Below the pieces are notes generated by a model, which searched no databases, was not told where the DNA came from, and was given only the letters and a program-made list of their open reading frames with translations. Shown here piece by piece: positions 7,525 through 22,879 of a stretch of 64,000 nucleotides of DNA; within the stretch, counting starts at the first letter, position 1, and each line of letters opens with the position of its first letter. The translations under genes were made by a program, and so were the position numbers. This DNA comes from Betaproteobacteria bacterium CG2_30_68_42 (lineage in GTDB: Bacteria > Pseudomonadota > Gammaproteobacteria > Burkholderiales > Rhodocyclaceae), in NCBI GenBank assembly GCA_001872285.1, contig MNXU01000051.1:107-64106 (forward strand), written 5' to 3'.

Positions 7525-7526
7525 CC

Positions 7527-8912
7527 ATGGCGAGGCGGCGCGATCCGGAAGGCGGAGAGGGCGCACGCGTGGTTGCCCCCGTGCTGCCCGCGCACGTGCT
7601 CGATCGTCCGCCCGAGGGCGTGGGCGAGGACGTGTGGATCGAGGTCATCCGCAAGATGGACGAGGTCTACAGCGACCTGCTCCAGTACGAGGTCGCGCTC
7701 GAGGAGAAGAACGCGGCGCTGGAAGAGACCCAGAAATTCATCTTTAGCGTGCTCGGCTCGATGTCGGACATCCTCGTCGTATGCGATCGCCATGGCGACA
7801 TCCAGGAGGTCAACCACGCGCTGGCCGAACTCACCGGCCGGGACGAGGCCGGGCTGCGCGGCGCGCCGCTGCGCAGCCTGTTCGCCGACGAGGACTCGCG
7901 CGAGCGCGCCGAGCGCTTCCTGCGCGAGCTGCACGGGGAACGCATCCAGGACTGCGAGCTCCAATTCCGCTCCCGCGACGGGGCCGTGCCGGTCGCAGTG
8001 AACTGCACGCCGCGCCTGTCGCCGGTGGGGAAGTTCGTCGGCCTGGTGGTCACGGGCCGCCCGGTGGGCGAGCTGCGGCGCGCCTACGAGGCGCTGCGCC
8101 GGGCGCATGAAGAGCTCAAGCGCGCGCAGCAGCAGCTCATCCACTCCGAGAAGATGGCCTCGCTCGGGCGTCTGGTGGCGGGCGTCGCGCATGAACTCAA
8201 CAACCCGATCGGCTTCGTGCTGGGGAACGTCCATGCGCTCCAGCGCTATGGCCGGCGCATGCGCGAATACATCGACGCCATCCACGCCGGCAGACCCGCG
8301 GACGAGATCGCGGAGCTTCGCGTTCGGCTTCGCATCGATCGGCTGATCGAGGATATGCAGCCGCTCATCGATGGAACGATGGAAGGCGCGGAGCGCACGC
8401 GCGACATCGTCGCCGGACTGCGGCGCTTCTCCGCAGCCGACCGCGGCGCGGAGGAGGTCTTCGATCTCGCGGCGGTCGTCGATCGCAGCGTGCACTGGGT
8501 GGTGAAGGCATCCGGCTCGAAGATTCGGATCGATCTGGACCTGAGCGGCGAGCTTCCGGTATCGGGCTCACCGGGGCAGATGCAACAGGTGCTGGTCAAC
8601 CTGGTCCAGAACGCGATCGACAGCACCGAACAGCGGGAAGATGCGCGCCTCGCCATCCGCGGCGAGGCGGTCGGCGACCGCGTCGTCCTTCTCCTGCATG
8701 ACAACGGGCCGGGCTTCAGGCAGGAGAGCCTGGACAGGGCGTTCGACCCGTTCTTCACCACGAAGCCGGTCGGCAAGGGCACCGGGCTGGGGCTGTCGAT
8801 CAGCTACGGCATCGTGCAGCGTCACGGCGGAAGCCTCACCGCCGCCAACCACCCGGACGGCGGGGCGCTGATGTCCCTGAGCCTTCCGCTCGCGCGGCGC
8901 CCGGCGCCGTAG
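7527..8912 (+). CDS. cytoplasmic PAS-domain sensor histidine kinase
   Basis: The ATG at 7527 is 2 nt after the nikR stop. PAS region SMSDILVVCDRHGDIQEVNHALAELTG, H-box SEKMASLGRLVAGVAHELNNP, N/G boxes LVNLVQNAID...DNGPGF...GKGTGLGLSISYGIV. No transmembrane segment, and no response regulator adjacent. Confidence 0.9.
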   Translation: MARRRDPEGGEGARVVAPVLPAHVLDRPPEGVGEDVWIEVIRKMDEVYSDLLQYEVALEEKNAALEETQKFIFSVLGSMSDILVVCDRHGDIQEVNHALAELTGRDEAGLRGAPLRSLFADEDSRERAERFLRELHGERIQDCELQFRSRDGAVPVAVNCTPRLSPVGKFVGLVVTGRPVGELRRAYEALRRAHEELKRAQQQLIHSEKMASLGRLVAGVAHELNNPIGFVLGNVHALQRYGRRMREYIDAIHAGRPADEIAELRVRLRIDRLIEDMQPLIDGTMEGAERTRDIVAGLRRFSAADRGAEEVFDLAAVVDRSVHWVVKASGSKIRIDLDLSGELPVSGSPGQMQQVLVNLVQNAIDSTEQREDARLAIRGEAVGDRVVLLLHDNGPGFRQESLDRAFDPFFTTKPVGKGTGLGLSISYGIVQRHGGSLTAANHPDGGALMSLSLPLARRPAP

Positions 8913-8921
8913 GCCGGGCGC

Positions 8922-10196
8922 TCAACCCGACTGCCGGCAGTGCGTCTCGCGCGCGATCGAGATCGCGACGAGCGACACGAGCACCCAGGCGACCATCAGC
9001 GCGAATCCGGCCTGGTAGGCGGCGGCATCGTAGATGCGCACACCGCCCGCCGTGGCTCCGTGCCAGGTGCGGTCGAGCATCCAGCCCACCGCCGGCTGGA
9101 GCACCATCCCGCCGCTCATCGTCCCCATGTTGTTCACACCCGAGGAGGTACCCGCGAGCGCGAGCGGAACGGATTCCTTGGCGAAGGCGAATCCGATGAT
9201 GATGCAGCCCGAGACGAAACCCAGCAGCAGGAGCAGCGGCACGAGGACCGGCAGCGGAGCCGCAGGCACGAGCACGATCGTGCCCCAGCCCAGCGCCGCC
9301 GCGGCTGCGCAGCCGACGTAGAGCGGCTTGCGGGCCCCGATCCGCTCCGACCAGGTTCCGAGCACCGGCCCGCCCACGGCCCATGCGATCAGCATGGCGG
9401 AGGTGAGCGCCGCGGCCTCGCGCGCGCTCAGGCCATGGACCTGGCGCAGATAGGGCACGCCCCACAGGCCGGCGAACGTGAGCATGGCGCCGGCGATGCC
9501 GCCGGACGTGACGAGCAGCAGCCACGAGTTCCGGTAAGAGAGCACCTGCGTCAGGCCGCGCCAGATCGAGGGGCGGGCGCGGTCCTCGTGATGCCCGGCG
9601 AAGTGGCTTGCATAACCGAGCTCGGTCGGGTCGTCACGCACACGCAGCCAGATCGCAGCGCATAGAGCGGCAGTCACCACCGCCGAGGCACCCATCACTG
9701 CACGCCAGCCGAAGGCATCCACCAGCATGCGCAGGGGCACCCCGGCGACCACCCCGCCGATCACCCCGACCAGCAGCGCCATCCCGGAAGCCAGTGTGAA
9801 CTGGCTCGGCGTGAACCAGTGGGTCGCGAGCTTTAGCATCGAGACGAAGGCCACCGCGACCGAGCCGCCGATCAGCAGGCGGCCGGCGTTGGCCCAGGCG
9901 GGATCGGGTGCCGCCGCGAACAGCGCGCTGCCCAGCGCGGCCACTCCCGCGCCCAGGGTCAGCAGCCGGCGCGGACCCCAGCGGTCGGCGATGATCCCGG
10001 TCGGGATCTGCATCGCCACGTAGGAATAGAAGTAGAACGCCGACAGGTTGCCGAGGGCGGCGGCGCCGATCGAGAAGTCGGTCATCAGCTTGTCGGTGAT
10101 GACCGCCGGCGCGACGCGCTGGTAGAAGGCGATCAGGTAGAGCGCTGCGCCAAGGCCCCATACGGACCAGGACAGAACGATCGGCGGCGGCATCAA
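8922..10196 (-). CDS. MFS transporter
   Basis: 424 aa and polytopic. Contains MQIPTGIIADRWGPRRLLTLG (MFS signature loop 2-3). Confidence 0.9.
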   Translation of the reverse strand: MMPPPIVLSWSVWGLGAALYLIAFYQRVAPAVITDKLMTDFSIGAAALGNLSAFYFYSYVAMQIPTGIIADRWGPRRLLTLGAGVAALGSALFAAAPDPAWANAGRLLIGGSVAVAFVSMLKLATHWFTPSQFTLASGMALLVGVIGGVVAGVPLRMLVDAFGWRAVMGASAVVTAALCAAIWLRVRDDPTELGYASHFAGHHEDRARPSIWRGLTQVLSYRNSWLLLVTSGGIAGAMLTFAGLWGVPYLRQVHGLSAREAAALTSAMLIAWAVGGPVLGTWSERIGARKPLYVGCAAAAALGWGTIVLVPAAPLPVLVPLLLLLGFVSGCIIIGFAFAKESVPLALAGTSSGVNNMGTMSGGMVLQPAVGWMLDRTWHGATAGGVRIYDAAAYQAGFALMVAWVLVSLVAISIARETHCRQSG

Positions 10197-10242
10197 TGGC
10201 TTCGCGGCCGTGGCGGGATACGCAACTTGCGAACCGTGACAC

Positions 10243-10269
10243 GAGACCCGGAACCCGGAACCCGCAACG
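10243..10269 (-). repeat. one-armed heptad element (GGGTTCC x2 + GGGTCTC on the minus strand) between rhodanese and the MFS gene
   Basis: The plus strand reads GAGACCC GGAACCC GGAACCC GCAACG. On the minus (mRNA) strand it is CGTTGC-GGGTTCC-GGGTTCC-GGGTCTC...AAGTTGCG, the same heptad + GTTGCG grammar as the bzd intergenic elements. Confidence 0.5.
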
Positions 10270-10275
10270 ACGCAG

Positions 10276-10662
10276 TCAGCACTGCTCCCAGGGCAGCCCC
10301 TCGAAGCGCCAGCCGTTGAGGACGTTGCGGCGGTGGTCGTCGCTCAGGTCGCCTTCGAAGCCGTGCAGCACGTTGTAGACCTTGGTGAAACCGGCCTGCT
10401 CCAGGGCGTGCCCCGCTTCGCGCGAACGGTTGCCGCTGCGGCAGATCAGCACCACCGGCCGATCGACGCTGGTCGCCTTCTTCACATGCGCGATGAAGTC
10501 GGGATTGACGTCCCAGTTCGGACCGTCGTTCCACGGGATCATGATCGCGCCCACGGGATGCCCGACGAACAGGAATTCCATCTCGCTGCGCACGTCGATG
10601 AACACGGCGGTCGGACTCTGGTGCAGGAATTCGGAGGCTTCCTTGGGATTGAGATGCTTCAT
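10276..10662 (-). CDS. rhodanese-like domain protein
   Basis: ATG at 10662-10660 within ORF 10276..10851. MKHLNPKEASEFL...VVLICRSGNRSREAGHALEQAGF carries the active-site loop CRSGNRS. Confidence 0.85.
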   Translation of the reverse strand: MKHLNPKEASEFLHQSPTAVFIDVRSEMEFLFVGHPVGAIMIPWNDGPNWDVNPDFIAHVKKATSVDRPVVLICRSGNRSREAGHALEQAGFTKVYNVLHGFEGDLSDDHRRNVLNGWRFEGLPWEQC

Positions 10663-10794
10663 CGCAACAACCCGTGGTCTCGAAGTCGATCGACATGATA
10701 CACGGCGGACCGCGGGCGGCGGGGGACAGGGGACGGCAAGCGCCCGGGCGACCGCTGCGCGTCGGAGCGCCGGCGCCGGGCCCGCCTCCATGCC

Positions 10795-10869
10795 ATATAG
10801 TGCAGCGGAAGAAATATATTGCGTTCCGTGGAAACAGGGTTTATAGTGCATGCAACGAAATATAGTGCG
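10795..10869 (+). promoter_or_regulatory. candidate bzd promoter/operator region with three (A/T)TATAGTGC repeats and a TGCATGCA palindrome
   Basis: ATATAGTGCA at 10795-10804, TTATAGTGCATGCA at 10841-10854 and ATATAGTGCG at 10860-10869. This is an AT-rich island in a high-GC genome, 113-187 nt upstream of the bzdN ATG. Confidence 0.45.
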
Positions 10870-10981
10870 TGTCCGTGCGTGGAATCGCGCTGCATGGGGT
10901 CGAGCCGGCGCCGGATGCGAGGCTCGTCCCGATGCTCACCCCTTCACCCGTTCCGGCGCGGCCGGTCAAGGAGGCTCACAG

Positions 10982-12121
10982 ATGAATGACGGCTTGTTCG
11001 ATCCGTTCAAGACCTGGTATGAGAAGCGCCACGACTACGCGCGTGACTGGAAGGCGCGCACCGGCGGACAGGTGGTGGCCACGATGTGCACCTATACGCC
11101 GGAGGAGCTGCTGATCGCGGCGGGCATGCTGCCGGTGCGGGTGCTCGGTGCCCACGAGCCGCAGAACGTCACCGAGCCGCATGTGTTCGGGATGTTCTGT
11201 CCGTTCTGCCGCGACTCGCTGGCCCAGGGGCTGCTGAACCGTTTCGATTATGCCGAAGGGGTGACGCTCACCCAGTCGTGCATCCAGTACCGCCAGAGCT
11301 TCGCCTCGTGGCGCATGCATGTTCCCACCGTCAAGTGGGACTACTACGTGCCGATGCCCAACGAGGTGCAGAGCCGCCACGCGCGACTCGCGCACTACGG
11401 CGAGGTCAAGAAGTTCCGCGACTTCCTCGGCAAGCTCACCGGCCAGCCGCTCTCCGAAGAGGCACTCGCCGAGGCGGTGGAGGTCGTGAACGAGAACCGC
11501 CGCCTGCTGCGCCAGTTGTTCGACTACCGCAAGCAGCCCAACCCCAACGTGACCGGCCTCGAGGCGCTCTACGCATCGCTCAGCGCCCAGTTCGTCGACA
11601 AGCGCGAGCACAACGCGCTGCTCCGGAAGGTGCTGGCCGCGCTGCCCTCGCGCCGGCTGGAGCGCCCCGAGGGCGTGCGCGTGATGACGATCGGATCGGA
11701 GAATGACGACTGCGGTTTCATGGCGATGATCGAGTCGGTCGGCGCCACCATCGTCATCGACGACCAGTGCTCGGGGACGCGTTACTTCTGGAACGAGGCG
11801 AAGCCGAACGGCGATCCCATCAAGGCGATCGCCGACCGCTACATCGATCGTCCGGCCTGCCCGACCAAGGACTACCCGGCCCACACCCGCTTCGACCACG
11901 TGCTGGGGCTCGCCAAGGACTACAACGCGCGGGCCGCGATCTTCCTCCAGCAGAAGTTCTGCGATCCGCACGAGGGCGACTACCCGGATCTCAAGCGTCA
12001 CCTCGAGGCCAATGGCATTCCGACGCTGTTCCTCGAGTTCGACATCACCAATCCCCTGGGACCGTTCCGCATCCGGGTCGAGGCATTCCTGGAAACGCTG
12101 AGCGAAGAAGAACTGTTCTGA
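10982..12121 (+). CDS. bzdN: benzoyl-CoA reductase, bzd-type, subunit N (BcrC/BadD-like)
   Basis: SD AGGAGG, then ATG at 10982. 379 aa of the 2-hydroxyacyl-CoA dehydratase/BCR B-C family ([26 protein letters not shown]...[10 protein letters not shown]). First gene of an N-O-P-Q set. Confidence 0.9.
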
Positions 12122-12137
12122 GCGAAGGAGACAAGCG

Positions 12138-13448
12138 ATGAATGCACCGGCGAAATACCCGAGCGAGCCGCTGAAGCTCTGGAAGAAGGCCAAGGAACTG
12201 CGCGAGCAGTATTACCTCAACTACGCCAGGGCGAAGGAAAACGGCGGACTGCGCTGGTCGGGCTCGGCCTGGGCGCTGGATGCGATTCCCGCGGGTCTGG
12301 GCGACGACGTCTATTCGCTCACCGGTGAGCCCTATGCGGCTTCCATCGCGCATGATCGCAAGTTCGCCAAGTCCTGCATGGACGCGGCCGAATCCTACGG
12401 CTTCGCGCGCGACCTGTGCTCCTACATGCGCATCTACTGGGGCGGCCTGCATCTGAACAAGTACCTGTTCGGCGGCGAGTTCCCCAAGCCCGACTTCATC
12501 TTCCAGAGCCAGATCTGCTGCTCGCACTCGAAGTGGTACCAGCATGTGGCCAAGGTCGACAAGGTTCCGGATTTCTATCTCGACGTGGGGGTGGGACCGT
12601 ACAAGGATCTCGACGCCTCGCGCGTCGCCTATGTCACCAACCAGCTTCACGACGCGATCGAGTGGCTGGAGAAGGTCACCGGCAGGAAGTACGACGACGA
12701 GAAGATGATCGCGGCGGTGAAGAACGAGATGCGCTCGACCAGCCGCTGGGCCGACATCTGCGCGCTGAACAAGGCCATCCCCGCGCCGCTCGACGAGAAG
12801 ACGATGTACTCGCTGTACTGTCTCGCCACGCTCCAGAAGTCCGCGAAGTGGTGCGCAGATTTCTACGACGAGCTCTACGACGAGGTGAAGGATCGCGTCG
12901 CGCGCGGCATCGCGGCGGTGGCGAACGAGCGCTGCCGGGTGATCTCGGACACCCAGCCGCCGTGGGGCTTTCTCAAGGTGTTCCGCTACCTCGAGACCTA
13001 CGGCGCGGTATCGGTCGGATCGCTCTACACCTTCGGGCTGGAAGGCATCTGGGAAGACAAGCCGGACGGAAGCTGGGGCGGGCGCACGACGCCGATGGAA
13101 AAGGGCATCGAGATCCGCGACCGCGACACCGCGCTACGCCTGTACGCGGAATGGAACCTCTCCAAGCCGCAGTGGCAGCACTTCTACGATCCGCAGCTCA
13201 AGACCGACATGATGCTGCGCATCGTGAAGGAGTGGAAGTGCGACGGCGTCATGCTGCACCTGAACCGCGGCTGCGAGGGGCTGTCGCTGGGCATCATGGA
13301 GAACCGCCTCGGACTGTCGAAGGCGGGGGTGCCGGTGATGACCTTCGAGGGCAACATGGGGGACGAACGCGAGTTCGACGAGGTGCGCACCCAGGCGCGC
13401 GTTGACGGATTCATGGAACAGCTCGGCCTGCGCAAGCTGGCCGCCTGA
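12138..13448 (+). CDS. bzdO: benzoyl-CoA reductase, bzd-type, subunit O (BcrB/BadE-like)
   Basis: 436 aa. SD GAAGGAGA. Contains ...[14 protein letters not shown]...[17 protein letters not shown]. It is a paralogue of the previous gene, as expected for the BCR catalytic pair. Confidence 0.9.
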
Positions 13449-13467
13449 TGCGAAGGAGAATGAAGAG

Positions 13468-14277
13468 ATGATCACTGCCGGAATCGACATGGGTTCGCGC
13501 ACCATCAAGGTGGTGCTGCTCGAGGACCTCAAGGTGGAAGGCGCGCCGCAGCTCAATTACGCGGTGCGCAAGGCGCAGATCATGTTCCCGGGCGAGCTCG
13601 ATCAGGATCAGGCCGCCGAACGGGTCTATGACGACGTGCTGGCCGCGGCCGGCCTCAAGCGCGAGGATGTCGCCGCGGTGTATGCGACCGGGGCGGGCCG
13701 CAAGCAGGTGAAGTTCGCGGCCGATGCGGTGACCGAAATGACCGCGGGCGCGCGCGGTGCGGTGTTCTTCTTTCCGAGCGTGCGCACCGTCGTCGATGTG
13801 GGCGCCGAGGAGGGCCGCGGGATCAAGACCGACGAGGCCGGCAAGCCGACCGACTTCGCCGGCAACGAGAAATGCGCGGCAGGGGCGGGTTCGTTCGCCG
13901 AGGCGATGTCGCGCGCCCTGCAGCTCTCGCTGCAGGACTTCGGCGAGGCGAGCCTGAAGTCGGACAAGACCATTCCGATGAACGCGCAATGCACGGTGTT
14001 CGCCGAGTCCGAGGTGGTCTCGCTGATCCACGCCTCGACGCCGAAGGAGGACATCGCGAAGGCGGTGCTCGACGCGGTGGCGAGCCGGGTGTGCGCGATG
14101 GTGCGCCGGGTCGGCATCGAGAACGACGTCGCACTGATCGGGGGCATGGTGCATAACGCCGGCTTCGTCGCCTCGCTCAAGGCGGCGATGGGAGTCGACG
14201 AGCTGAAGCTTCCCGAGATGCCGGAATACGTGAGCGCGGTGGGCTGCGCGCTGCTCGCGGCCGAGACCCGCCACTGA
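13468..14277 (+). CDS. bzdP: benzoyl-CoA reductase, bzd-type, subunit P (BcrD/BadG-like ATPase)
   Basis: SD AAGGAGAA, then ATG at 13468. MITAGIDMGSRTIKVV...NEKCAAGAGSF...LIGGMVHNAGF places it in the BcrAD/BadFG/HgdC ATPase family. Confidence 0.85.
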   Translation: MITAGIDMGSRTIKVVLLEDLKVEGAPQLNYAVRKAQIMFPGELDQDQAAERVYDDVLAAAGLKREDVAAVYATGAGRKQVKFAADAVTEMTAGARGAVFFFPSVRTVVDVGAEEGRGIKTDEAGKPTDFAGNEKCAAGAGSFAEAMSRALQLSLQDFGEASLKSDKTIPMNAQCTVFAESEVVSLIHASTPKEDIAKAVLDAVASRVCAMVRRVGIENDVALIGGMVHNAGFVASLKAAMGVDELKLPEMPEYVSAVGCALLAAETRH

Positions 14278-14302
14278 ACCGATCAACGAGAGGACCACGA
14301 TC

Positions 14303-15232
14303 ATGACCGAGCTTTCCGCATTCAACGCCCCTTCGTCGGGCGAGAAAAAGGAGTTCTGGCGCTGGGACGAAACCGCCTGGGTGGATGAATCCAGGGACTG
14401 GCGCAGCGCCAAGGTGCTGACCTGCGGCATCGACGTCGGATCGGTGTCCTCGCAGTGCGTGATCTGCGCCGACGGCGAGCTGTATGCCTACAACTCGATG
14501 CGCACCGGCAGCAACAGCCCGGACTCGGCGACGAACGCCTTCGCCGGCGTCACCGCCAGGACCGGCCTCACCGTCCCTGACGTGCAGTTCGTCGTCGGCA
14601 CCGGCTACGGGCGGGTGAACGTGCCGTTCTCCCACAAGGCCATCACCGAGATCGCCTGCCACGCGCGCGGCGCCAACAAGATGGGCGGCAACAGCGTGCG
14701 CACCATCCTCGACATGGGCGGCCAGGACTGCAAGGCCATCCACTGCGACGAGAAGGGCAAGGTCACCAACTTCCTGATGAACGACAAGTGCGCGGCGGGC
14801 ACCGGCCGCGGCATGGAGGTGATCTCGGACCTGATGCAGATCCCGATCGCCGAGCTGGGGCAGCGCTCGTTCGAGGTCGATGTGGAGCCGGAGGCGGTGA
14901 GCTCGGTGTGCGTGGTGTTCGCCAAGTCGGAGGCCCTGGCGATGCTCAAGGCCGGCTACACGAAGAACAAGGTGGTCGCCGCCTACTGCCAGGCGATGGC
15001 CGAACGGGTGGTGTCGCTGCTCGGTCGCATCGGCGTCGAGGAGGGCTTCTTCATCACCGGCGGCATCGCCAAGAATCCCGGCGTGGTCAAGCGCATCGAG
15101 CGCCTGCTCGGCATCAAGGCGATGGAGACGAAGATCGACAGCCAGATCGCCGGGGCGTACGGCGCCGCGCTGTTTGCCCACACCCTGGTCCTCAAGCAGG
15201 GTGCCGCCAAGCCGCTCGCGGCCGCGGCCTGA
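14303..15232 (+). CDS. bzdQ: benzoyl-CoA reductase, bzd-type, subunit Q (BcrA/BadF-like ATPase)
   Basis: 309 aa. CGIDVGSVSSQCV...DMGGQDCKAI...NDKCAAGTGRGMEV...ITGGIAKNPGV. Second ATPase of the pair. Confidence 0.85.
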   Translation: MTELSAFNAPSSGEKKEFWRWDETAWVDESRDWRSAKVLTCGIDVGSVSSQCVICADGELYAYNSMRTGSNSPDSATNAFAGVTARTGLTVPDVQFVVGTGYGRVNVPFSHKAITEIACHARGANKMGGNSVRTILDMGGQDCKAIHCDEKGKVTNFLMNDKCAAGTGRGMEVISDLMQIPIAELGQRSFEVDVEPEAVSSVCVVFAKSEALAMLKAGYTKNKVVAAYCQAMAERVVSLLGRIGVEEGFFITGGIAKNPGVVKRIERLLGIKAMETKIDSQIAGAYGAALFAHTLVLKQGAAKPLAAAA

Positions 15233-15242
15233 GGACGAGGCG

Positions 15243-15527
15243 ATGATCGCCAACTACGGCTACAAGGACGGCTCCGGCGAGTATTACATCAGCATCGACA
15301 CGGACAAGTGCATCGAATGCCCAGTGGGCCGGGCCTGCCTCGCCGCCTGCCCCAAGGCGATGTTCGAGACCCTGGTCGATGACTACGACGACGAGGTGGT
15401 CTGCATCAAGGCGCAGTTCAGGAAGAGCCTGGCGTACGACTGCGTGCAGTGCAAGCCTGCAGGAGGCCACACGCGGCTGCCGTGCACGGATGCGTGTGCG
15501 CCGGGGGCGATCCGGCATTCGTGGTGA
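15243..15527 (+). CDS. bzdM: ferredoxin (position of bzdM)
   Basis: ATG at 15243. 94 aa with two Cys clusters, CIECPVGRACLAACP and CVQCKP...CTDACAPGAI. Starts 10 nt after bzdQ. Confidence 0.75.
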   Translation: MIANYGYKDGSGEYYISIDTDKCIECPVGRACLAACPKAMFETLVDDYDDEVVCIKAQFRKSLAYDCVQCKPAGGHTRLPCTDACAPGAIRHSW

Positions 15528-15544
15528 GCGCGGGAGCGGCGATC

Positions 15545-15823
15545 ATGGCCAGGGTGATACCGCTGCGGCCGCTGGGCGATGCGGGCGAGGAGGAGCTGAT
15601 CCGGGCCGGGTGGCGCAAGCAGAGCACGCTCTCGGAGCCGCGGCTCTCGGAAGTGGCCGAAGGCTACCGCAGCATGGGCTACGAGGTCCATCTCCAGCCG
15701 TATCGCGCGGGGCCCGGCTGCAACACCTGCTTCGATGCCGGCGAGGCGCTCGGCCAGAAGCATGCGACGGTGTGGATCCGCGGCGGGGGATCCGCGCGCG
15801 GCGACGACGAACTGTTCGACTGA
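15545..15823 (+). CDS. small hypothetical protein (position of bzdS)
   Basis: ATG at 15545 inside ORF 15449..15823. 92 aa, MARVIPLRPLGDAGEEELIRAGWRKQS...GCNTCFDAGEALG. Supported only by its operon position and tight spacing. Confidence 0.5.
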   Translation: MARVIPLRPLGDAGEEELIRAGWRKQSTLSEPRLSEVAEGYRSMGYEVHLQPYRAGPGCNTCFDAGEALGQKHATVWIRGGGSARGDDELFD

Positions 15824-15852
15824 CGGGCGCGGCCCGCGAAGAGGAGACGATC

Positions 15853-16302
15853 ATGGCTGAAGAACGGGTGATGCGGCTGATCCGGCGCGAGGATCTGGAT
15901 GCCATCGTGGCGATCGACGAACTGGCCTCGAAGCAGAACCGGCGCGACTACTACGAGCACAAGCTCGCCGGCATCCTGAGTCCGGGGCGCTCGATCAACA
16001 CCTCGCTCGTGTGCGAGATCGGCGGCAGGATCGCCGGCTTCATCATGGGCGACGTGTATTTCGGCGAGTTCGGCATCCCCGACACCACCGCGACCATCGA
16101 CACCATCGGCGTGCATCCGGACTGGCAGAACAAGGGCGTGGCGAGCGAGCTGCTCGACCAGTTCTTCATGAACATGAAGGTGGCCGGCGTGCGCAAGGTC
16201 TACACGCTGGTCAATTGGGACGACTTCGCGCTGGAGCGCTTCTTCTCCCACCACAAGTTCGTGCCCTCGAAGCGCATCAACCTCGAATATCAAGTTCAAT
16301 GA
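15853..16302 (+). CDS. GNAT-family N-acetyltransferase (position of bzdT)
   Basis: SD GAGGAGA, then ATG at 15853. 149 aa. IGVHPDWQNKGVASELL is the acetyl-CoA binding Q/R-x-x-G-x-A motif. Confidence 0.85.
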   Translation: MAEERVMRLIRREDLDAIVAIDELASKQNRRDYYEHKLAGILSPGRSINTSLVCEIGGRIAGFIMGDVYFGEFGIPDTTATIDTIGVHPDWQNKGVASELLDQFFMNMKVAGVRKVYTLVNWDDFALERFFSHHKFVPSKRINLEYQVQ

Positions 16303-16305
16303 AAC

Positions 16306-16380
16306 GGTTTCAGGTTTCACGTTGCGCGTCGCGGCGAGCGCTGCCAACGTCGCAAACCACTGGAACCTGAAACCTGAAAT
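16306..16380 (+). repeat. heptad-repeat hairpin element A (GGTTTCA x2 ... TGGAACC TGAAACC TGAAAT)
   Basis: Fills the 81-nt GNAT-PHP spacer. A 14-bp stem pairs 16306-16319 with 16361-16374, including one G-U pair. The inner GTTGCG/CGCAAAC pair flanks a GC-rich core. Confidence 0.8.
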
Positions 16381-16383
16381 GCA

Positions 16384-17031
16384 ATGTGGATCGACTGCCA
16401 TTGCCACACGCGGTACTCCTACGACAACTGGCTCGATCCCGTGGACCTGGTGAAGAGGGCGAGGGAGCTCGCGCTCGATGCGGTGTGCGTGACCGAACAC
16501 TACTCGTATGAAGCCTCGGCACCGGTCGAGCGCATCGGGCGCGAGGAGGGCGTGCTGGTGCTGCGCGGGGTGGAGATCGCGACCGACCGCGGCCACCTGC
16601 TCGCCTACGGCGTCGAGGACGACTCCTGGAACCGCTGGGGCCAGGACAACTACCTGCCGATCGCCGAAGTGATCGAGCGCATCGATGTGCTGGGCGGCAT
16701 CTGCGTGCCCGCACACCCGTATCGGGAGATCGGGGTCGCGAGCCTGCTCGATGCGCTGCTGGAACTCCAGGGCATCGCGGCGGTGGAGACCCACAACGGC
16801 GCCAACCTGGAATCCGACAACGAACTGGCGCTGCGTGCGGCCCGGCACCGCAAGTTGCCCGGGCTCGGCGGCAGCGACTGCCACAAGGCGTCCGCCGTCG
16901 GGCGCTGCGCGACCGAGTTCTCGACGCCGGTCGCCGACATGCGGGATTTCGTTGCGGCGGTGCGCGCGGGTGCCTGCCGTGGCGCCTACTATGCGCCGTA
17001 CGCGCATCGGCATGCGGAGAGCGGGAGATGA
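16384..17031 (+). CDS. PHP-domain metal-dependent phosphoesterase (position of bzdU)
   Basis: 215 aa. MWIDCHCHTRYSYD...AVCVTEHYS...GVEI...PAHPY...ETHNG...GGSDCH shows the PHP His/Asp motifs. Confidence 0.85.
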   Translation: MWIDCHCHTRYSYDNWLDPVDLVKRARELALDAVCVTEHYSYEASAPVERIGREEGVLVLRGVEIATDRGHLLAYGVEDDSWNRWGQDNYLPIAEVIERIDVLGGICVPAHPYREIGVASLLDALLELQGIAAVETHNGANLESDNELALRAARHRKLPGLGGSDCHKASAVGRCATEFSTPVADMRDFVAAVRAGACRGAYYAPYAHRHAESGR

Positions 17032-19574
17032 GTGCACAGGTTCAGGGAATCGGCTGGTGGAAGGCGAGCCGGGCGAAGGGGCTCGAAGCCTTCGGCAAGC
17101 CGGTGGCGATTTCGATCGACGGGCGCGAAGTGCTGGCGCCGGCCGGAGCCTCGGTGCTCAACGCGGCCACGGTGGCCGGGATCTACATCCCTGCGCTGTG
17201 CGCGCACCCCGACCTTCCGCCGGCGGCTGCCCGTGGCGCGGGCGATTCCGGCTGCAACCTGTGCCTGATCGAAGTGGAAGGCGAACCGGGGCTGCGCAAG
17301 GCCTGCGCGACGCCGGTCGCCGCGGGCCTCGCGCTGGTTACGGCCTCGCCCGCGATCGAGGCGGCGCGCAGTGCGAATCTCGCGCGCGTGCTCGGCAGTC
17401 ACCCGCACGTGTGCCTGACCTGCCCGCAGCGCGAGGGGTGCAGCCGCACCCAGTGCTCCTACGGCAACCCGCCCGAGGCCCGCTGCTGCTCCATCTTCAA
17501 CCATTGCGAGCTGCGCAAGATCTCCGACTACATCGGCATCCCGAACAACACGCCCGCCTACAAGCCCGCGCGACTGCCGGCGCACACCGACGATCCGTTC
17601 TTCGATCGCGACTACAACCTGTGCATCGACTGCCGCCGCTGCCTCGCCGCCTGCAACGACATCCGCGGCGTCGGCTGCCTCGAGGTGAAGGAAGTCGACA
17701 CCGCCCAGGGCAGGCGGACCTATGTGGGCACGATCCGGGAGAGCCTCGTCGATTCGGGCTGCAAGTTCTGCCAGGCGTGCGTTACGGTGTGTCCGACCGG
17801 AGCGCTCACCGACCGCACGCTCGATCCGGCGCGGCGCGAACAGTCCATGGTGCCGTGCAGGGCCGCCTGCCCGGCCGGCATCGACGTGCCGCGCTACGTC
17901 CAGCTCGCGGCGCTGGGGCGCTACGGGGAGGCGGTCGCGGTGGTGCGCGAGAAGCTGCCCTTTCCCGGCATCCTCGGGCGCGCCTGCTTCGCGATGTGCG
18001 AGAGCGCGTGCCGGCGCGGCCAGCTCGACGATCCGCTCTCGATCCGAACCCTCAAGCGTGTGGCCGACGACAACGACACCGGAGTGTGGCGGCAGTATTC
18101 GAGGCAGGCGCCGCCCACCGGCAGGAAGGTGGCGGTGATCGGAGCCGGGCCGGCCGGGCTGACCGTCGCCTACTACCTCGCCAAGAAGGGCCACGCGGTG
18201 ACGGTCTTCGATGCGCAGCCGGCTGCGGGCGGCATGGCGCGCTACGGCATTCCCTCCTACCGCGTGCCGATCGAGGTGATCGACCGCGAGGTGGCCGAGG
18301 TCGAGAAGCTCGGCGTGATGTTCCGCTTCGGGACCCGGGTGGAGGGCATCGATGATCTGTTCGCGCAGGGCCACGAGGCGGTATTCATCGGCATCGGCTG
18401 CCAGGGCGGCGACCGGCTCGGGATCCCCGGCGACGATTCTCCGGGGGTCATCGACAGTCCCGCCTATCTGCGTGCGGCGACCATGGGTCTCGTCAACGCA
18501 CCCGGCTCCGGCATCGCCACCGGGGAACGTGTTGCCGTCATCGGCGGCGGCAATGTCGCCACCGACAACGCGCGCTCCTCGCGCAGGGTGGGAGTGCAGG
18601 CGGTCGACATGGTGTATCGGCGCACACGCGACGAGATGCCCGCCCGCGAAGAGGAGGTCGAAGGCTGCATCGACGAGGGCGTCAAGCTCCGCTTCCTGCT
18701 CTCGCCCAAGCGCATCGAGCCGGCCGGCGCGCGTCTGAAGGTCACCTGGGCGAAGATGGAGCTCGGCGAGCCGGATGCCTCGGGCCGGCGGCGTCCGGTC
18801 GAGGTGCCCGGCGCGGAGATTCAGGAGGAGGTCGATCTGGTGATCGCGGCGGTCGGCCAGCACCCGGTGAGGCACGAAGGCTTCGGTGTCGTGACCGACG
18901 CCAGGGGGCGCATCACGGTGCGCGAGGACAGCATGCTCACCAGCCGCCCCGGCGTCTATGCGGGCGGCGACTGCGTGCTCGGCCCGTCCACGCTGATCGA
19001 GTCGGTGGCGCACGGGCGCATCGCCGCGGCCGCGATCGACCGCGAACTGGGCGGCGACGGCGACATCGAGGAGAAGCTCCTACCCGACTGGGACACCGAT
19101 CCGCGGATCGGCCGCGAGGAAGGCTTCAACCGGCGCCGGAAGATCCACCCGATCCTGCTCGCCCCGCAGCGGCGGCAGAACTGGGACGAGGTCGAGCGGG
19201 GATACGACGACGCGTCGGCGCGCGCGGAAGCTTCGCGCTGCCTGAAGTGCAACCTGGCGCCGAAGATCCTCGACGCGCCGCTGCCGCCCGAGTCGTGGCT
19301 CGACTTCGACGCGGATGCGATCGCCGGCGTGCCGGCTGCGCCGGGCGTGTTCCAGCTCCTCGATGCCGACCGGAACGTGCTCATGATCAAGGGCGTGGAG
19401 AACCTGCGCGCCGGCCTCAACGAACAGTTCGGCGGCGGCGGGGCGGCGAGGTTCTTCGTCTTCGAGGAAGCGGCGCTCTACACTTCGCGCGAGAGCCAGT
19501 TGATCCAGGCCTATCTCCAGCAGTACGGAAAGATGCCGGGCGGCGGCGCGGGCGAACTCGACGATCTGTTCTGA
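17028..19574 (+). CDS. bzdV: multidomain iron-sulfur flavoprotein, BzdV-like NADPH:ferredoxin oxidoreductase (NuoG-like 2Fe-2S/4Fe-4S N-terminus + GltD-like core + C-terminal GIY-YIG-like tail)
   Basis: 848 aa with an ATGA overlap onto the PHP gene. N-terminus ISIDGREVLAPAGASVL...HPHVCLTCPQREGC...CIDCRRCLAACN...CKFCQACVTVCPTGA. GltD-like core CRAACPAGIDVP...KVAVIGAGPAGLTVAYYL...GGMARYGIP. Confidence 0.85.
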   Translation: MSAQVQGIGWWKASRAKGLEAFGKPVAISIDGREVLAPAGASVLNAATVAGIYIPALCAHPDLPPAAARGAGDSGCNLCLIEVEGEPGLRKACATPVAAGLALVTASPAIEAARSANLARVLGSHPHVCLTCPQREGCSRTQCSYGNPPEARCCSIFNHCELRKISDYIGIPNNTPAYKPARLPAHTDDPFFDRDYNLCIDCRRCLAACNDIRGVGCLEVKEVDTAQGRRTYVGTIRESLVDSGCKFCQACVTVCPTGALTDRTLDPARREQSMVPCRAACPAGIDVPRYVQLAALGRYGEAVAVVREKLPFPGILGRACFAMCESACRRGQLDDPLSIRTLKRVADDNDTGVWRQYSRQAPPTGRKVAVIGAGPAGLTVAYYLAKKGHAVTVFDAQPAAGGMARYGIPSYRVPIEVIDREVAEVEKLGVMFRFGTRVEGIDDLFAQGHEAVFIGIGCQGGDRLGIPGDDSPGVIDSPAYLRAATMGLVNAPGSGIATGERVAVIGGGNVATDNARSSRRVGVQAVDMVYRRTRDEMPAREEEVEGCIDEGVKLRFLLSPKRIEPAGARLKVTWAKMELGEPDASGRRRPVEVPGAEIQEEVDLVIAAVGQHPVRHEGFGVVTDARGRITVREDSMLTSRPGVYAGGDCVLGPSTLIESVAHGRIAAAAIDRELGGDGDIEEKLLPDWDTDPRIGREEGFNRRRKIHPILLAPQRRQNWDEVERGYDDASARAEASRCLKCNLAPKILDAPLPPESWLDFDADAIAGVPAAPGVFQLLDADRNVLMIKGVENLRAGLNEQFGGGGAARFFVFEEAALYTSRESQLIQAYLQQYGKMPGGGAGELDDLF

Positions 19575-19591
19575 ACTACGAGGGAGGAATC

Positions 19592-20365
19592 GTGGCCGAA
19601 TCCGGAACCGTACGCTATGCGCTGTTCGACGCGCTGGTCACCGTGACCATCGATCGTCCGCCGCACAACGTGCTCGACATCGCGCTGATGCAAGAGCTGA
19701 ACGGGGCGCTGGATCGCGCCTCGCGCGAGAGTACCGCGAAAGTGCTGATGATCACCGCCGCGGGCGGCAAGGTGTTCTCGGCCGGAGTCGACGTGATGGA
19801 TCACACGCCCGACAAGGTGGTGCAGATGATCGAGGTGTTCCACGGCATCCTCAAGCGCCTGATGGTGTTCCCGCTGCCGACGGTGGCCGCGGTCAACGGC
19901 TCGGCCTTCGGCGGCGGCTGCGAGCTTGCGATCGCCTGCGACATGGTGGTGGCGGCGGAGGGCGCGAAGCTGGGCCAGCCCGAGATCAAGCTGGGCGTGT
20001 TCCCGCCGATCGCAGCGATCCTGATGCCCAGGATCCTGCCCCTGCCGCGCGTGATGGAGATGCTGCTCGGCGGCAACCCGATCGGGGCGCGCGAAGCCTT
20101 CGAGCTGGGGATGGTGAACCGCGTGTTCGCGCGCGAAGCCTTCGAGCGCGAGTGCCGCGAATTCGTTGCCCAGTTCCTGTCGCTGAGCCGCGTGGCGCTG
20201 CTCTACACCAAGAAGGCGATCCGCGAAGCCGCGGGCAAGCCCTTCTTCGAGGCGCTGTTCAACGTGGAGCAGATCTACCTCAAGGAACTCATGGCCACCC
20301 ACGACGCGGTCGAGGGACTCAATTCGTTCATGGAAAAACGCAAACCGGTCTGGCTCGACAGGTGA
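19592..20365 (+). CDS. bzdW: cyclohexa-1,5-diene-1-carbonyl-CoA hydratase (crotonase family)
   Basis: SD GGGAGGAA, then GTG at 19592. 257 aa. VFSAGVDV...AAVNGSAFGGGCELAIACDM is an enoyl-CoA hydratase fold in the bzdW position. Confidence 0.85.
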   Translation: MAESGTVRYALFDALVTVTIDRPPHNVLDIALMQELNGALDRASRESTAKVLMITAAGGKVFSAGVDVMDHTPDKVVQMIEVFHGILKRLMVFPLPTVAAVNGSAFGGGCELAIACDMVVAAEGAKLGQPEIKLGVFPPIAAILMPRILPLPRVMEMLLGGNPIGAREAFELGMVNRVFAREAFERECREFVAQFLSLSRVALLYTKKAIREAAGKPFFEALFNVEQIYLKELMATHDAVEGLNSFMEKRKPVWLDR

Positions 20366-20375
20366 CAGACCGTAC

Positions 20376-20402
20376 GGTGCAATGAGCGAAGCGCATTGCA
20401 CC
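20376..20402 (+). repeat. hairpin GGTGCAATG-AGCGAAGCG-CATTGCACC
   Basis: Perfect 9-bp stem whose loop contains GCGAAGC. The 14-mer ATGAGCGAAGCGCA (20382-20395) recurs at 22851-22864 in the next long bzd spacer. Confidence 0.7.
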
Positions 20403-20423
20403 AAGCATGACGGACAGGTATCC

Positions 20424-20514
20424 GGTTTCGGGTTTCGGGTTTCAAGTTGCGCCGCGCCGCCGGTCGCACCCATGCAACCTGGAGCGTGAAACTTGAAACT
20501 TGAAACTTGAAACT
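20424..20514 (+). repeat. heptad-repeat hairpin element B (GGTTTCG x2 + GGTTTCA ... TGAAACT x4)
   Basis: 25 consecutive pairs between 20424-20448 and 20490-20514 if G-U is allowed (5 G-U pairs, all in the plus-strand RNA). The inner GTTGC/GCAAC pair flanks a GC-rich core. Confidence 0.85.
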
Positions 20515-20531
20515 GCTCATCGAGAGGGGAA

Positions 20532-21602
20532 ATGCTGGTGGAATTCATCGATACGTGGCAGATGACGGAGCCGGGGCGGCTCGCGCGGACCCGGGTCCCG
20601 ATGCCGGAACTCGCGCCGGGCGAGGTGGTGGTGGAGATCCGGGGGTGCGGGGTCTGCCACACCGACCTTTCGTATTTCTACCTGGGCGTGCCCACGGTGC
20701 AGAAGCCGCCGCTCTCGCTCGGCCACGAGATCGCGGGCGTGGTGGTCGCGGGGGATGCGGCGCTGGCGGGGCGCGAGGTGATCGTCCCCGCGGTCATCCC
20801 CTGCGGCGAGTGCGAGATCTGCAAGGCGGGGCGCGGCAACCGCTGCCTCGCGCAGAAGATGCCGGGCAATTCCATGGGCATCCATGGCGGGTTTGCGAGC
20901 CACATCGTCGTGCCCGGGAGGTTCCTGTGCGTGGTGGGAGAACGGGGTGCGATCCCGCTCGAGCATCTCGCGGTGGTGGCCGACGCGGTCACCACACCCT
21001 ACCAGGCGGCGGTGCGCGCCGGGCTCGTGCCGGGCGACCGGGTGATCGTGATCGGCGCAGCCGGCGGGGTGGGCTCCTTCATGACCCAGACCGCCAAGGC
21101 GATGGGCGCGCGCGCGGTGATCGGCATCGACCTCAACGAGGCGAAGCTCAAGCGCATGGAGGGCTTCGGCGCCGACTTCACCATCAACCCGAAGGGACTC
21201 TCCACGAAGGACGTGAAGGAAGCGATCAAGGGCTTCTGCAAGGCGCACGGTCTGCCCGCGAACTTCGGCTGGAAGATCTTCGAGGTGACCGGCAGCCGCC
21301 CCGGCCAGGAGCTGGCGCTCGCGCTGCTGTCCTTCCTCGGCACCCTGGTGGTGGTGGGCTACGGCACCGAAGAGACGAGCTACATGCTCTCCAGGCTGAT
21401 GGCCTTCGACGCCCAGATCATCGGCACCTGGGGCTGCACGCCGGACAAGTATGCCGACGTGCTCGCGATGTGTCTGGACGGGCGCATCCGGCTCGAGCCC
21501 TTCGTGGAAGTGCAGCCGATGAGCCGCATCGCGCAGGTGTTCGACGATGCGCATCACGGACGCCTCGATCGGCGCGTGGTGCTGACCCCCGATTTCGACT
21601 GA
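20532..21602 (+). CDS. bzdX: 6-hydroxycyclohex-1-ene-1-carbonyl-CoA dehydrogenase (Zn-dependent MDR alcohol dehydrogenase family)
   Basis: 356 aa. GCGVCHTDLSYFY...GHEIAGVV...VIGAAGGVGSF. In the bzdX/had position. Confidence 0.85.
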   Translation: MLVEFIDTWQMTEPGRLARTRVPMPELAPGEVVVEIRGCGVCHTDLSYFYLGVPTVQKPPLSLGHEIAGVVVAGDAALAGREVIVPAVIPCGECEICKAGRGNRCLAQKMPGNSMGIHGGFASHIVVPGRFLCVVGERGAIPLEHLAVVADAVTTPYQAAVRAGLVPGDRVIVIGAAGGVGSFMTQTAKAMGARAVIGIDLNEAKLKRMEGFGADFTINPKGLSTKDVKEAIKGFCKAHGLPANFGWKIFEVTGSRPGQELALALLSFLGTLVVVGYGTEETSYMLSRLMAFDAQIIGTWGCTPDKYADVLAMCLDGRIRLEPFVEVQPMSRIAQVFDDAHHGRLDRRVVLTPDFD

Positions 21603-21623
21603 ACCCCGACCGGAGAGACGAAC

Positions 21624-22754
21624 ATGGCACTCGAATTCCTGCGCAGGGACGACGCGCTGAAGGACCACCAACTGATCGGCGAGGGCCACTTCGGCACCGA
21701 GGCGCCCTGCGTGATCTACGAGAAACGCCCGGTGCGCGATCCCTCGGGCGGCGCAGTCGAAGGGCTGTACTCGGCCTGGATCACGCTCAACAATCCGGCC
21801 CAGTACAACTCGTACACGACCGAGATGGTGAAGGGCGTGATCGCCGGCTTCCAGGCCGCTTCCTCCGATCGCAGCGTGGTCGCGGCGGTTTTCACCGGCG
21901 CCGGCGACAAGGCCTTCTGCACCGGCGGCAACACCGCGGAGTACGCTGCCTATTACTCGAAGCGGCCGAACGAATACGGCGAGTACATGGATCTGTTCAA
22001 TGCCATGGTGGATGGCATCCTCAACTGCAAGAAGCCGGTACTGTGCCGGGTGAACGGCATGCGGGTCGCAGGCGGCCAAGAGATCGGCATGGCGACCGAC
22101 CTCACCCTCTCCTCCGACCTCGCCATCTACGGCCAGGCCGGCCCGCGGCACGGCAGCGCCCCGGTGGGCGGGTCCACGGACTTCCTGCCGTGGTACCTGT
22201 CGATGGAGGACGCGCTCTACAACTGCGTGTCCTGCGAGATGTGGAGCGCCTACAAGATGAAGGCCAAGGGTGTGGTCACCAGGGTCGTGCCGGTGCTGAA
22301 GAAGGACGGCCGCTGGGTGCGCAATCCGCTGGTGCGCACCGACGCCTGGGTGGAAGACGGCGAGATCGTCTATGGCGAGCCGGTCGCCGCCGAGCGGGCG
22401 AAGGCGGCGAAGGCGCTGATCGCGGAATGCACGACGGATTTCGAACTGCTCGATGCCGAAGTCGATCGCCTGCTGTGGAAATTCACCAACCTCTTTCCCC
22501 ACTGCCTGATGAATTCCATCGACGGCATCCGCGCCAAGAAGAAGTTCTTCTGGGACCAGTCGAAGCTGCCCCAACGCCACTGGCTCGCCGCCAACATGAA
22601 CTTCGAGGCCTGGATGGGCTTCAACGCCTTCGATACCAAGAAGATCACCGGCACGGACACGATCGACTTCGTGAAGTACCGCCAGCTCACCGCGCAGGGG
22701 GCGCTCATCGACGAGGCGTTCGCCGCACGGGTGTTCGGAAGGCCGAAGGGTTGA
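21624..22754 (+). CDS. bzdY: 6-oxocyclohex-1-ene-1-carbonyl-CoA hydrolase (ring-opening; Oah/BamA family)
   Basis: 376 aa of the long crotonase-type. AWITLNNPAQYNSYT...AFCTGGNTAEY...VNGMRVAGGQEIGMATDL...FLPWYLS. Confidence 0.9.
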   Translation: MALEFLRRDDALKDHQLIGEGHFGTEAPCVIYEKRPVRDPSGGAVEGLYSAWITLNNPAQYNSYTTEMVKGVIAGFQAASSDRSVVAAVFTGAGDKAFCTGGNTAEYAAYYSKRPNEYGEYMDLFNAMVDGILNCKKPVLCRVNGMRVAGGQEIGMATDLTLSSDLAIYGQAGPRHGSAPVGGSTDFLPWYLSMEDALYNCVSCEMWSAYKMKAKGVVTRVVPVLKKDGRWVRNPLVRTDAWVEDGEIVYGEPVAAERAKAAKALIAECTTDFELLDAEVDRLLWKFTNLFPHCLMNSIDGIRAKKKFFWDQSKLPQRHWLAANMNFEAWMGFNAFDTKKITGTDTIDFVKYRQLTAQGALIDEAFAARVFGRPKG

Positions 22755-22759
22755 ATTGA

Positions 22760-22868
22760 GTTTCAGGTTCCAGGTTCCAGGTTTCGGGTCGTGCAGGTCG
22801 GGTCGGGCGCGATGCGGAGCCGATCCGGCGGGGCGGTGCTGCACGCTGCGATGAGCGAAGCGCAATCG
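22760..22868 (+). repeat. heptad element D (one-armed): GTTTCAG GTTCCAG GTTCCAG GTTTCGG + CGTGCAG/CTGCACG core + ATGAGCGAAGCGCA hairpin motif
   Basis: Heptads at 22760-22787. A 7-bp inverted repeat (22790-22796 / 22839-22845) flanks a GC-rich core. The shared 14-mer lies at 22851-22864. No inverse heptads follow. Confidence 0.65.
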
Positions 22869-22879
22869 GAGAGACGAGG

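Follow-up and report, generated by a model that had tools for sequence, protein, structure and literature searches.

The 64,000-nt stretch of contig MNXU01000051.1 analysed here (the window) carries an operon for a bzd-type benzoyl-CoA reductase, in which the entire spacer between the GNAT and PHP genes (16303..16383, + strand) is taken up by a palindromic element, here called element A. It comprises two GGTTTCA units, a degenerate CGTTGCG unit, a 41-nt GC-rich core, and three inverse units. The explanation we lean towards is that element A is one copy of a lineage-specific interspersed repeat, resembling the repetitive extragenic palindromic (REP) sequences, built on the heptanucleotide microsatellite GGTTYCR and driven by slippage. 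Four such GGTTYCR heptad elements (A to D) lie within 13 kb of the window, all of them intergenic and all between co-directional genes. They are real, fast-evolving repeats, and nothing in these data shows them to be a dedicated RNA regulator.

The initial annotation had proposed a repeat family with heptad arms, and the motif counts place this family far above chance. With at most one mismatch allowed, GGTTTCRGGTTTC matched 5 times in the window against 0.01 expected, an excess of about 500-fold. With at most two mismatches, GGTTYCRGGTTYCR matched 22 times against 3.4 expected; all matches with 0–1 mismatches fell within A–D, and the remaining 51 kb of the window held no further 0–1-mismatch heptad match. 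Lag-7 autocorrelation was 0.41–0.52 in all four spacers, values reached by at most 9 of 5000 shuffles. TRF placed period-7 arrays at 10246-10268, 16360-16379, 20424-20443, 20487-20514, and 22760-22783, and five of the six such arrays in 64 kb belong to A–D.

The left arm of element A (16306..16319, +) is formed by GGTTTCA at 16306-16312 and again at 16313-16319, followed by CGTTGCG, and begins 3 nt past the GNAT stop codon (16300-16302). The right arm (16361..16381, +) contains TGGAACC (16361-16367), TGAAACC (16368-16374), and TGAAATG (16375-16381), and the PHP ATG is at 16384. RNAfold reproduced the 14-bp outer stem proposed earlier between 16306-16319 and 16361-16374, with T16317-G16363 (U16317-G16363 in the RNA) as its sole wobble, and also gave an inner stem, GTTGCG/CGCAA. 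The predicted energy was −39.6 kcal/mol (z −2.4) for the + strand and −36.1 kcal/mol (z −1.2) for the − strand. The right arm had been described as ending 3 nt before the PHP start codon; this applies to the degenerate third heptad, which is unpaired and comes within 2 nt, but not to the paired stem, which stops 9 nt before the ATG. PHP was confirmed to be without a Shine-Dalgarno (SD) sequence, no GGAG-like element being present in the 45 nt upstream of its ATG (some relatives have one), and to overlap bzdV by 4 nt (ATGA).

Element B, in the bzdW-bzdX spacer (20417..20514, +), has three left and four right heptads. From 5' to 3', it reads as a degenerate GGTATCC, two GGTTTCG units and one GGTTTCA (20424-20444), AGTTGCG with the rest of the core (20445-20486), and four TGAAACT units (20487-20514). 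RNAfold predicted a continuous 24-bp stem for the + strand (−53.5 kcal/mol, z −4.1), and A-C internal loops at the same positions in the − strand (−45.6 kcal/mol, z −2.8). The stems of A and B are thus both better paired in the mRNA sense, as had been claimed. Element B begins 51-58 nt past a stop codon and leaves the SD of bzdX free. The cores of A and B, 41 and 42 nt long, both open with MGTTGCGC; their similarity is otherwise modest, as judged by eye from the alignment. A promoter/terminator scan disclosed no terminator-like site at A–D. The elements are not intrinsic terminators because no U-tract follows: the tail after A reads UGAAAUGCAAUG, and that after B reads GCUCAUCGAG.

The spacer of element B also contains a separate palindrome at 20376-20402 (+), GGTGCAATGAGCGAAGCGCATTGCACC, with the form TGCA-N15-TGCA and a predicted energy of −19 kcal/mol (z −3.3). 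The sequence at its centre, GATGAGCGAAGCGCA, is present again between bzdY and bzdZ, in the window (22850-22864, +) as well as in the related locus L131 (16427-16440). One of the described BzdR operator types matches the GGTGCAATGAGCGAAGCGCATTGCACC palindrome in half-sites and spacing (PMC6678401), so the palindrome may serve as an operator within the operon or may be a conserved RNA hairpin in its own right.

The two remaining elements are one-armed. Element C (22759..22786, +), 4 nt past the bzdY stop, is an array of AGTTTCA, two GGTTCCA units, and GGTTTCG, with degenerate units after it; it has no inverse arm, and its fold is not better than that of shuffled sequences (z +0.5). The two-armed grammar that had been attributed to all three long spacers of the operon consequently stands for A and B, which form hairpins, but not for C, which has a left array only and is unstructured. 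Element D (10242..10269, −) consists of CGTTGCG, two GGTTCCG units, GGTCTCG, and then degenerate units including AGTTGCG, and likewise showed no significant fold (z +0.5 versus shuffles). The fourth copy thus exists but is situated outside the bzd operon: it is a minus-strand element that separates the rhodanese gene from the MFS gene and begins 6 nt past the rhodanese stop (10278-10276). The rest of spacer C (22787-22879) shows a 5-nt periodicity (lag-5 identity 0.51, e.g., GGTCG GGTCG GG), which suggests a second, decayed short tandem repeat after the heptads.

Population variation was read from 10 contigs from different samples, which match the window at 99.8-99.97% identity across 14-20 kb. 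All of their indels fall in B: one contig lacks 7 nt of the right arm, and four contigs lack 14 nt of the left arm. Element B is the only length-polymorphic site among these contigs, and its two arms change independently. The suggestion that heptad number is prone to slippage is borne out by these steps of 7 and 14 nt, and growth and shrinkage of the arrays by 7 nt at a time are consistent with replication slippage. One population assembly, contig L003, has an N-gap inside the B array, indicating that assemblers struggle with the repeat, a point in favour of the pattern being a chance similarity or an assembly artefact. That explanation is effectively refuted by the roughly 500-fold excess of the motif, by the identity of A, C, and D in every spanning contig, and by the recovery of the −14 allele of B from four different samples or assemblies.

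According to Pfam matches and gene calls, the operon runs in the order bzdNOPQ, two small open reading frames (ORFs), GNAT, PHP, a bzdV-like oxidoreductase, bzdW, bzdX, bzdY, and an OYE-type reductase; Pfam identified bzdW as a hydratase, bzdX as a dehydrogenase, and bzdY as a ring hydrolase. Junction lengths were taken in window coordinates from gene calls on identical metagenome contigs together with the Pfam matches. They agree with the earlier statement that all bzd junctions are 29 nt or shorter, or overlap, save three spacers of 81, 166, and 125 nt: N-O 16 nt, O-P 19, P-Q 25, Q to the first small ORF 10, first to second small ORF 17, second small ORF to GNAT 29, GNAT-PHP 81, PHP-V a 4-nt overlap, V-W 17, W-X 166, X-Y 21, and Y-Z 125. 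The host is an uncultured groundwater Rhodocyclales population. An identical PHP protein is present in many groundwater metagenome assemblies and in the NCBI metagenome-assembled genome (MAG) GCA_002791095.1, and a partial protein, 100% identical, bears the name 'Rhodocyclales bacterium CG17_big_fil_post_rev_8...'.

The closest relative found, locus L131, has the same gene order, a PHP protein that is 83% identical, and about 88% nucleotide identity. Its nucleotide alignment with the window breaks exactly at spacers D, B, and C. At D (window 10194-10278, −; L131 3940-3965), the window carries 79 extra nt, largely degenerate heptads, between stop and start; in L131, the element is absent and the rhodanese stop and MFS start overlap (GTGCTGA), so that the two genes appear to be translationally coupled there; in the window, MFS translation starts at a new TTG/ATG. 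The L131 spacer at site B is unstructured and 42 nt long, to which element B adds about 124 nt in the window, and element C is absent from the corresponding site. At A, a degenerate 65-nt homologue is still recognisable, but it does not fold better than shuffled sequences (z 0.05). In seven further bzd loci, two from Azoarcus sp. KH32C and Aromatoleum aromaticum and five from MAGs or metagenome contigs, the GNAT-PHP spacers measure 22-40 nt, and no GGTTYCR array (exact pattern, at least two tandem units) was present in any of the eight related loci. From the lack of arrays and the short spacers in these relatives, it follows that the elements are recent and create the long spacers, and that they are no part of an ancestral operon design. 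The notion that the elements fill long spacers must therefore be reversed, and the structure is not conserved, with no significant fold at site A of L131 and nothing at B, C, or D.

The two lineages are also unlike each other in the 3' flank of the operon. The first genes past the operon in the window are a toxin-antitoxin-like pair, composed of a PIN-domain gene and a small MazE/AbrB-like gene (25077-25747, −), where L131 has a large helicase gene.

Of the systems already described, the intergenic heptamer arrays reported by Rehm et al. 2015 (PMC4692102), with the units GGGAATC in Xanthomonas and GGGGA(C/T)T in Nostoc, come nearest. These are 89-93% intergenic and mostly separate co-oriented ORFs, with a mean distance of 28 nt to the ORF upstream. 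Each genome has about 70 convergent inverted pairs capable of forming stem-loops; close relatives differ in the length of their arrays, both strands occur in transcripts, and their function is unknown (PMC4692102). The window arrays resemble the Xanthomonas repeat in their head-to-tail 7-nt units of at least two copies, in their intergenic position near the upstream stop (3 nt for A, 4 for C, 6 for D), and in the unit-step variation of element B (−7, −14). Like the 'always convergent' Xanthomonas pairs, A and B are convergent inverted pairs, and the same polarity prevails elsewhere (below). The heptamer simple sequence repeat (SSR) class is also marked by many loci per genome with one common unit; four loci with GGTTYCR were counted within the 64-kb window. 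Unlike the Xanthomonas and Nostoc units, GGTTYCR is without G-tracts, so it has no quadruplex potential, and it is spread over many phyla, the host here being a Rhodocyclales groundwater population. A comparable case is that of the TAACTGA repeats of Beggiatoaceae, Cyanobacteria, and Bacteroidetes, which are intergenic, occur in 2-6 or more copies, and show 7-nt indels between strains (MacGregor 2015, PMC4679880). Only 1 of 170 TAACTGA sets is inverted, most lie just upstream of start codons in one orientation, and their mechanism is unknown (PMC4679880). The elements described here share with these repeats and with the cyanobacterial short tandemly repeated repetitive (STRR) heptamers the occurrence of intergenic direct heptamers across distant phyla and a positional bias towards starts or stops. 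They differ from TAACTGA in that inverted pairs of GGTTYCR are common and its arrays abut stop codons.

REP sequences and bacterial interspersed mosaic elements (BIMEs) are interspersed imperfect palindromes of Enterobacteria and Pseudomonas, located in co-transcribed spacers and 3' ends, and their presence varies among relatives. Being co-transcribed, REPs stabilise upstream mRNA segments and affect the translation of adjacent cistrons. They are 20-40-nt units with a conserved GTAG-type foot that is recognised by RAYT transposases. The window elements are like REP/BIME in being extragenic, located between co-directional genes, and variably present between relatives. In contrast to REPs, the palindromes of A and B span 70-100 nt, and their arms are microsatellites of variable unit number. 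Neither has GTAG at its foot, and among the scanned window proteins, which cover part of the window ORFs, no transposase was seen and no RAYT was identified. The Correia/NEMIS elements of Neisseria are palindromic MITEs (miniature transposable elements with inverted repeats) that lie inside operons, are co-transcribed, and can be RNase III substrates; their body of 100-150 bp is conserved, and they show TA target duplications. Palindromic interspersed elements within an operon and inverted repeats of fixed polarity are common to both systems. However, the loops differ between the window copies, single arms are frequent, and, as read from the sequences, no target-site duplication flanks A, B, or the D insertion. 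In operons subject to selective RNA processing and stabilisation (SRPS), such as the cip-cel operon of Clostridium cellulolyticum, intercistronic stem-loops are described as stabilising (PMC4423207). Elements A and B, but not C and D, are similarly stable stem-loops downstream of cistrons in a long catabolic operon, and stabilisation of this sort is what they would bring about, should they be functional; the SRPS stem-loops are defined by mapped processing sites and transcript ratios, whereas A and B are known from sequence folding and are not conserved among bzd operons.

Rfam 15 at the gathering threshold gave no match in the window nor in 18 other loci with the same grammar, and at E ≤ 1 the region 10100-23000 gave chance-level matches only (e.g., mir-981, 20.5 bits against a gathering threshold of 51). 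Searches of the literature on bzd intergenic repeats, Azoarcus REP, and GGTTTCA/TGAAACC revealed no description of this unit. The Bordetella repeat BRE (Betaproteobacterial repeat element), with a tandem unit of ~90 bp, was compared by description only, and no link was made. The remark in the initial annotation that this is not a described repeat family is thus correct for the unit GGTTYCR, for which neither a paper nor an Rfam match was found, but not for the class, which is represented by the Xanthomonas GGGAATC heptamers. The elements show every heptamer-SSR feature tested and show neither the REP foot, nor the MITE duplication, nor a terminator, nor an Rfam match. The novelty is modest and consists of a unit shared across phyla, strict arm polarity, and direct population-level evidence of slippage in 7-nt steps.

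A search of species-representative genomes for three tandem GGTTYCR units returned at least 120 stretches, and the matches listed include Acidobacteriota, Bacteroidota, Planctomycetota, Desulfobacterota, Cyanobacteria, Rickettsiales, and Betaproteobacteria, among others. About one in six of the stretches listed displayed the full grammar, (GGTTYCR)n, loop, (YGRAACC)n, with loops unrelated between genomes, and one-armed arrays outnumbered two-armed ones. Neighbouring genes were called with a simple composition-based gene caller, which reproduces the known bzd strands. Among the matches listed, 101 of 121 arrays and 37 of 41 hairpins were intergenic; genes were called on both sides of 25 hairpins, and in 20 of these the two genes were co-directional. 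One-armed arrays with GGTTYCR in the sense strand were nearer the upstream stop than the downstream start in 11/13 cases, at a median of 19 nt from the stop, as compared with 11/25 for arrays in the opposite orientation (Fisher p 0.036). Elements C and D conform to this stop-proximal rule.

Metagenomes contained 41 stretches with the junction GGTTYCR-GGTTTCA-MGTTGCG, from organisms of 30-65% GC, many with a right arm a few nucleotides further on. In one metagenome (Ga0315279), four contigs carried about eleven elements in 40 kb, about 1 per 4 kb, and 5 of them share a conserved 25-nt loop starting AGTTGCGCGCG; in some genomes, then, the elements constitute a dense, dispersed, REP-like family. 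Among viral contigs, three tandem GGTTYCR units occurred in 104 stretches, and two permuted units occurred in 55 and at least 120, with inverted partners also frequent for one of the permuted units. By these counts, GGTTYCR is not obviously exceptional as a microsatellite. In the Desulfobacterales MAG L067 (2815-3003), four GGTTTCA and four TGAAACC units surround a 132-nt core whose translation weakly resembles the N-terminus of the 23S-rRNA-IVS (four-helix-bundle) protein, a sub-threshold match (PF05635, E 0.19). We rejected the idea of a mobile unit with a gene for such a protein, of which the arms would be what is left, as this is the one locus that fits among those examined and its Pfam match is sub-threshold.

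Palindromes of other kinds were found in the spacers of related bzd operons. Strong but unrelated hairpins are located at the bzdW-bzdX junction in L132 (14247-14396), L134 (14349-14482), L138 (14031-14160), and L137 (14397-14487), and short unstructured spacers at the same junction in L131 and L135. This junction could be a hot spot for palindrome insertion or a place where a hairpin is useful or selected. Octamer-armed palindromes of the form (xCACAGAG)n...(CTCTGTGx)n occur four times in one bzd operon, L136 (4760-4850, 6710-6790, 9360-9450, and 10762-10850), and once in L134 (15566-15670). They have a conserved body of about 100 nt and predicted stems of about −70 kcal/mol, with z −9 to −10 in the two copies tested. 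L134 also carries a hairpin armed with CACGGCGA. With the octamer elements, it makes palindromes of short tandem units a recurrent means of filling bzd operon spacers.

In the explanation we prefer, slippage would generate and remodel the heptad arrays; two such arrays, complementary and convergent, make an imperfect palindrome of the spacers that hold A and B. A process at the DNA level, such as hairpin-templated correction or whole-element copying, would keep the arms complementary and their polarity fixed. The elements would persist because operon spacers tolerate them, and they would not be a bzd-specific regulator. Their presence could still have consequences for the polycistronic bzd mRNA, in which A and B are predicted to fold into 14-24-bp stems. 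By analogy with REP/BIME and intercistronic stem-loops, both stems would slow 3'-to-5' decay of the upstream mRNA segment. The stem of A is also predicted to occlude the start region of PHP, and a ribosome terminating at the GNAT stop would have to melt it. Since the stem lies 3 nt past the GNAT stop and 9 nt before the SD-less ATG, initiation at PHP and, via the ATGA overlap, at bzdV could be coupled to GNAT translation. Such hairpin-gated coupling is a plausible outcome of the folding model, and the A and B hairpins may affect mRNA decay or PHP translation.

Several observations weigh against slippage as the full explanation. A, C, and D are invariant among the population contigs, which weighs little at a divergence of ~0.1%. 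Slippage alone gives no account of the strict polarity in other genomes, where the GGTTYCR arm precedes its partner in 41 cases and follows it in 6, nor of the recurrence of the AGTTGCG inner unit across organisms of 30-65% GC; both point to a sequence-specific process or common descent, neither of which was identified. A and B are each more stable on the sense strand, where all heptad-stem imperfections are G-U, and strong unrelated hairpins recur at the bzdW-bzdX junction elsewhere (KH32C, z −4.1; L134, z −4.75; L138, −68.6 kcal/mol). The last two observations favour an explanation by selection in the mRNA sense, with the hairpins acting in cis as RNA elements, A throttling or coupling translation of PHP/bzdV and B providing processing or stabilising sites that set segment stoichiometry. 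The position of the A stem between the GNAT stop and the SD-less ATG, the PHP-bzdV overlap, and the presence of GGTTYCR in the sense strand of the flanking genes in all four copies are also in its favour. We nevertheless consider it unlikely. The sense asymmetry in the window goes back to some three transitions that arose independently, a single one in A and, in B, two differences at the level of the unit, and would arise by chance about once in eight times if each change had even odds of giving G-U or A-C. Among 20 hairpins between co-directional genes in other genomes, the sense strand was more stable in 7 and the antisense strand in 12, with one tie, and GGTTYCR lay in the sense strand in 13/38 one-armed arrays, so a cross-genome sense-strand G-U bias was rejected. 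The G-U argument for mRNA-level selection then comes down to the approximately three substitutions in A and B. Neither this selection nor an enrichment in sense orientation, as examined outside this genome, was upheld, although stems that are stable on either strand limit the power of the test and an absent asymmetry does not exclude an RNA role. Moreover, C and D are unfolded, B leaves the bzdX SD free and its arms vary independently in the population, and the structure at site A is conserved neither in L131 nor in the other seven loci with their short spacers. Another explanation takes the tandem heptads as sites for a protein that reads 7-nt units, either a cold-shock-domain protein on single-stranded RNA or DNA or a nucleoid or regulatory protein on the duplex, with the hairpin being secondary. 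It would fit the conservation of the heptad unit, and not of the loop, across phyla, the partnerless arrays in C, D, and other genomes, and the stop-proximal bias of the sense arrays. CspB offers a precedent, as it is reported to bind heptamer repeats with one protein per unit, in work cited in PMC4679880. However, a candidate protein is lacking, tandem arrays of permuted heptads occur about as often, and a 7-bp period would set successive duplex sites on different faces of the helix, and we regard this explanation as very improbable.

The fixed polarity is what terminal inverted repeats would show, and the elements could be non-autonomous mobile units (MITE- or REPIN-like) moved in trans by a transposase that binds the terminal heptad arrays. 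Presence or absence between close relatives with precise boundaries, the dispersed copies with a conserved loop in Ga0315279, the matching length and opening of the A and B cores, and the similar behaviour of the octamer-armed palindromes in other bzd operons agree with mobility. They must be set against the absence of target-site duplications at A, B, and D and of the RAYT-type GTAG foot, the prevalence of one-armed over two-armed arrays, loops that are unrelated between genomes, the lack of a transposase adjoining any window copy, and arm lengths that shift by 7 nt as in plain microsatellites. On balance, we give mobility in trans a low probability. A broader proposal, which we regard as speculative and rather doubtful, is that the palindromes belong to one widespread family, present in at least 10 phyla with fixed polarity and, in a sub-family, the AGTTGCG inner unit. 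Such a family would be spread or kept by a sequence-specific factor, either transposase-like or a heptad-reading RNA- or single-stranded-DNA-binding protein, and used as a modular intercistronic element for mRNA segment stability and translational coupling, in this case within the bzd operon.

Three observations concern other parts of the window. The bzd cluster has no adjoining bzdR or benzoate-CoA ligase gene (10663-10981; upstream genes 6948-10662), in which it differs from the KH32C, L134, and L137 loci; the genes upstream of it encode NikR-like, PAS histidine kinase, MFS, and rhodanese proteins. Repeats with TGCA (ATATAGTGCA...) that resemble BzdR operators are nonetheless present ahead of bzdN. 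At 46340-46421, a perfect 24-nt inverted repeat (GGGGTCAGTTCTTTACTTTATAGT and its complement) encloses a loop of 34 nt; no perfect palindrome in the window is longer. It is AT-rich within a genome of ~66% GC, lies just upstream of a minus-strand gene (45323-46321), and has no relation to the heptads.

As regards the bzd operon, its long spacers go back to repeat DNA inserted recently and not to regulatory regions of ancestral origin, so it should not be taken for granted that differential expression of bzd segments in this lineage reflects conserved biology. The over-representation of heptamer repeats in the intergenic DNA of bacteria is known but unexplained, and this case adds a unit shared by many phyla, a strict polarity together with a positional rule relative to the stop codon, and variation in 7-nt steps within a natural population. 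Should a specific factor underlie the polarity, it would represent a new mechanism of repeat propagation or post-transcriptional control; if there is no such factor, the elements would advise caution against reading strong intercistronic hairpins as regulators.

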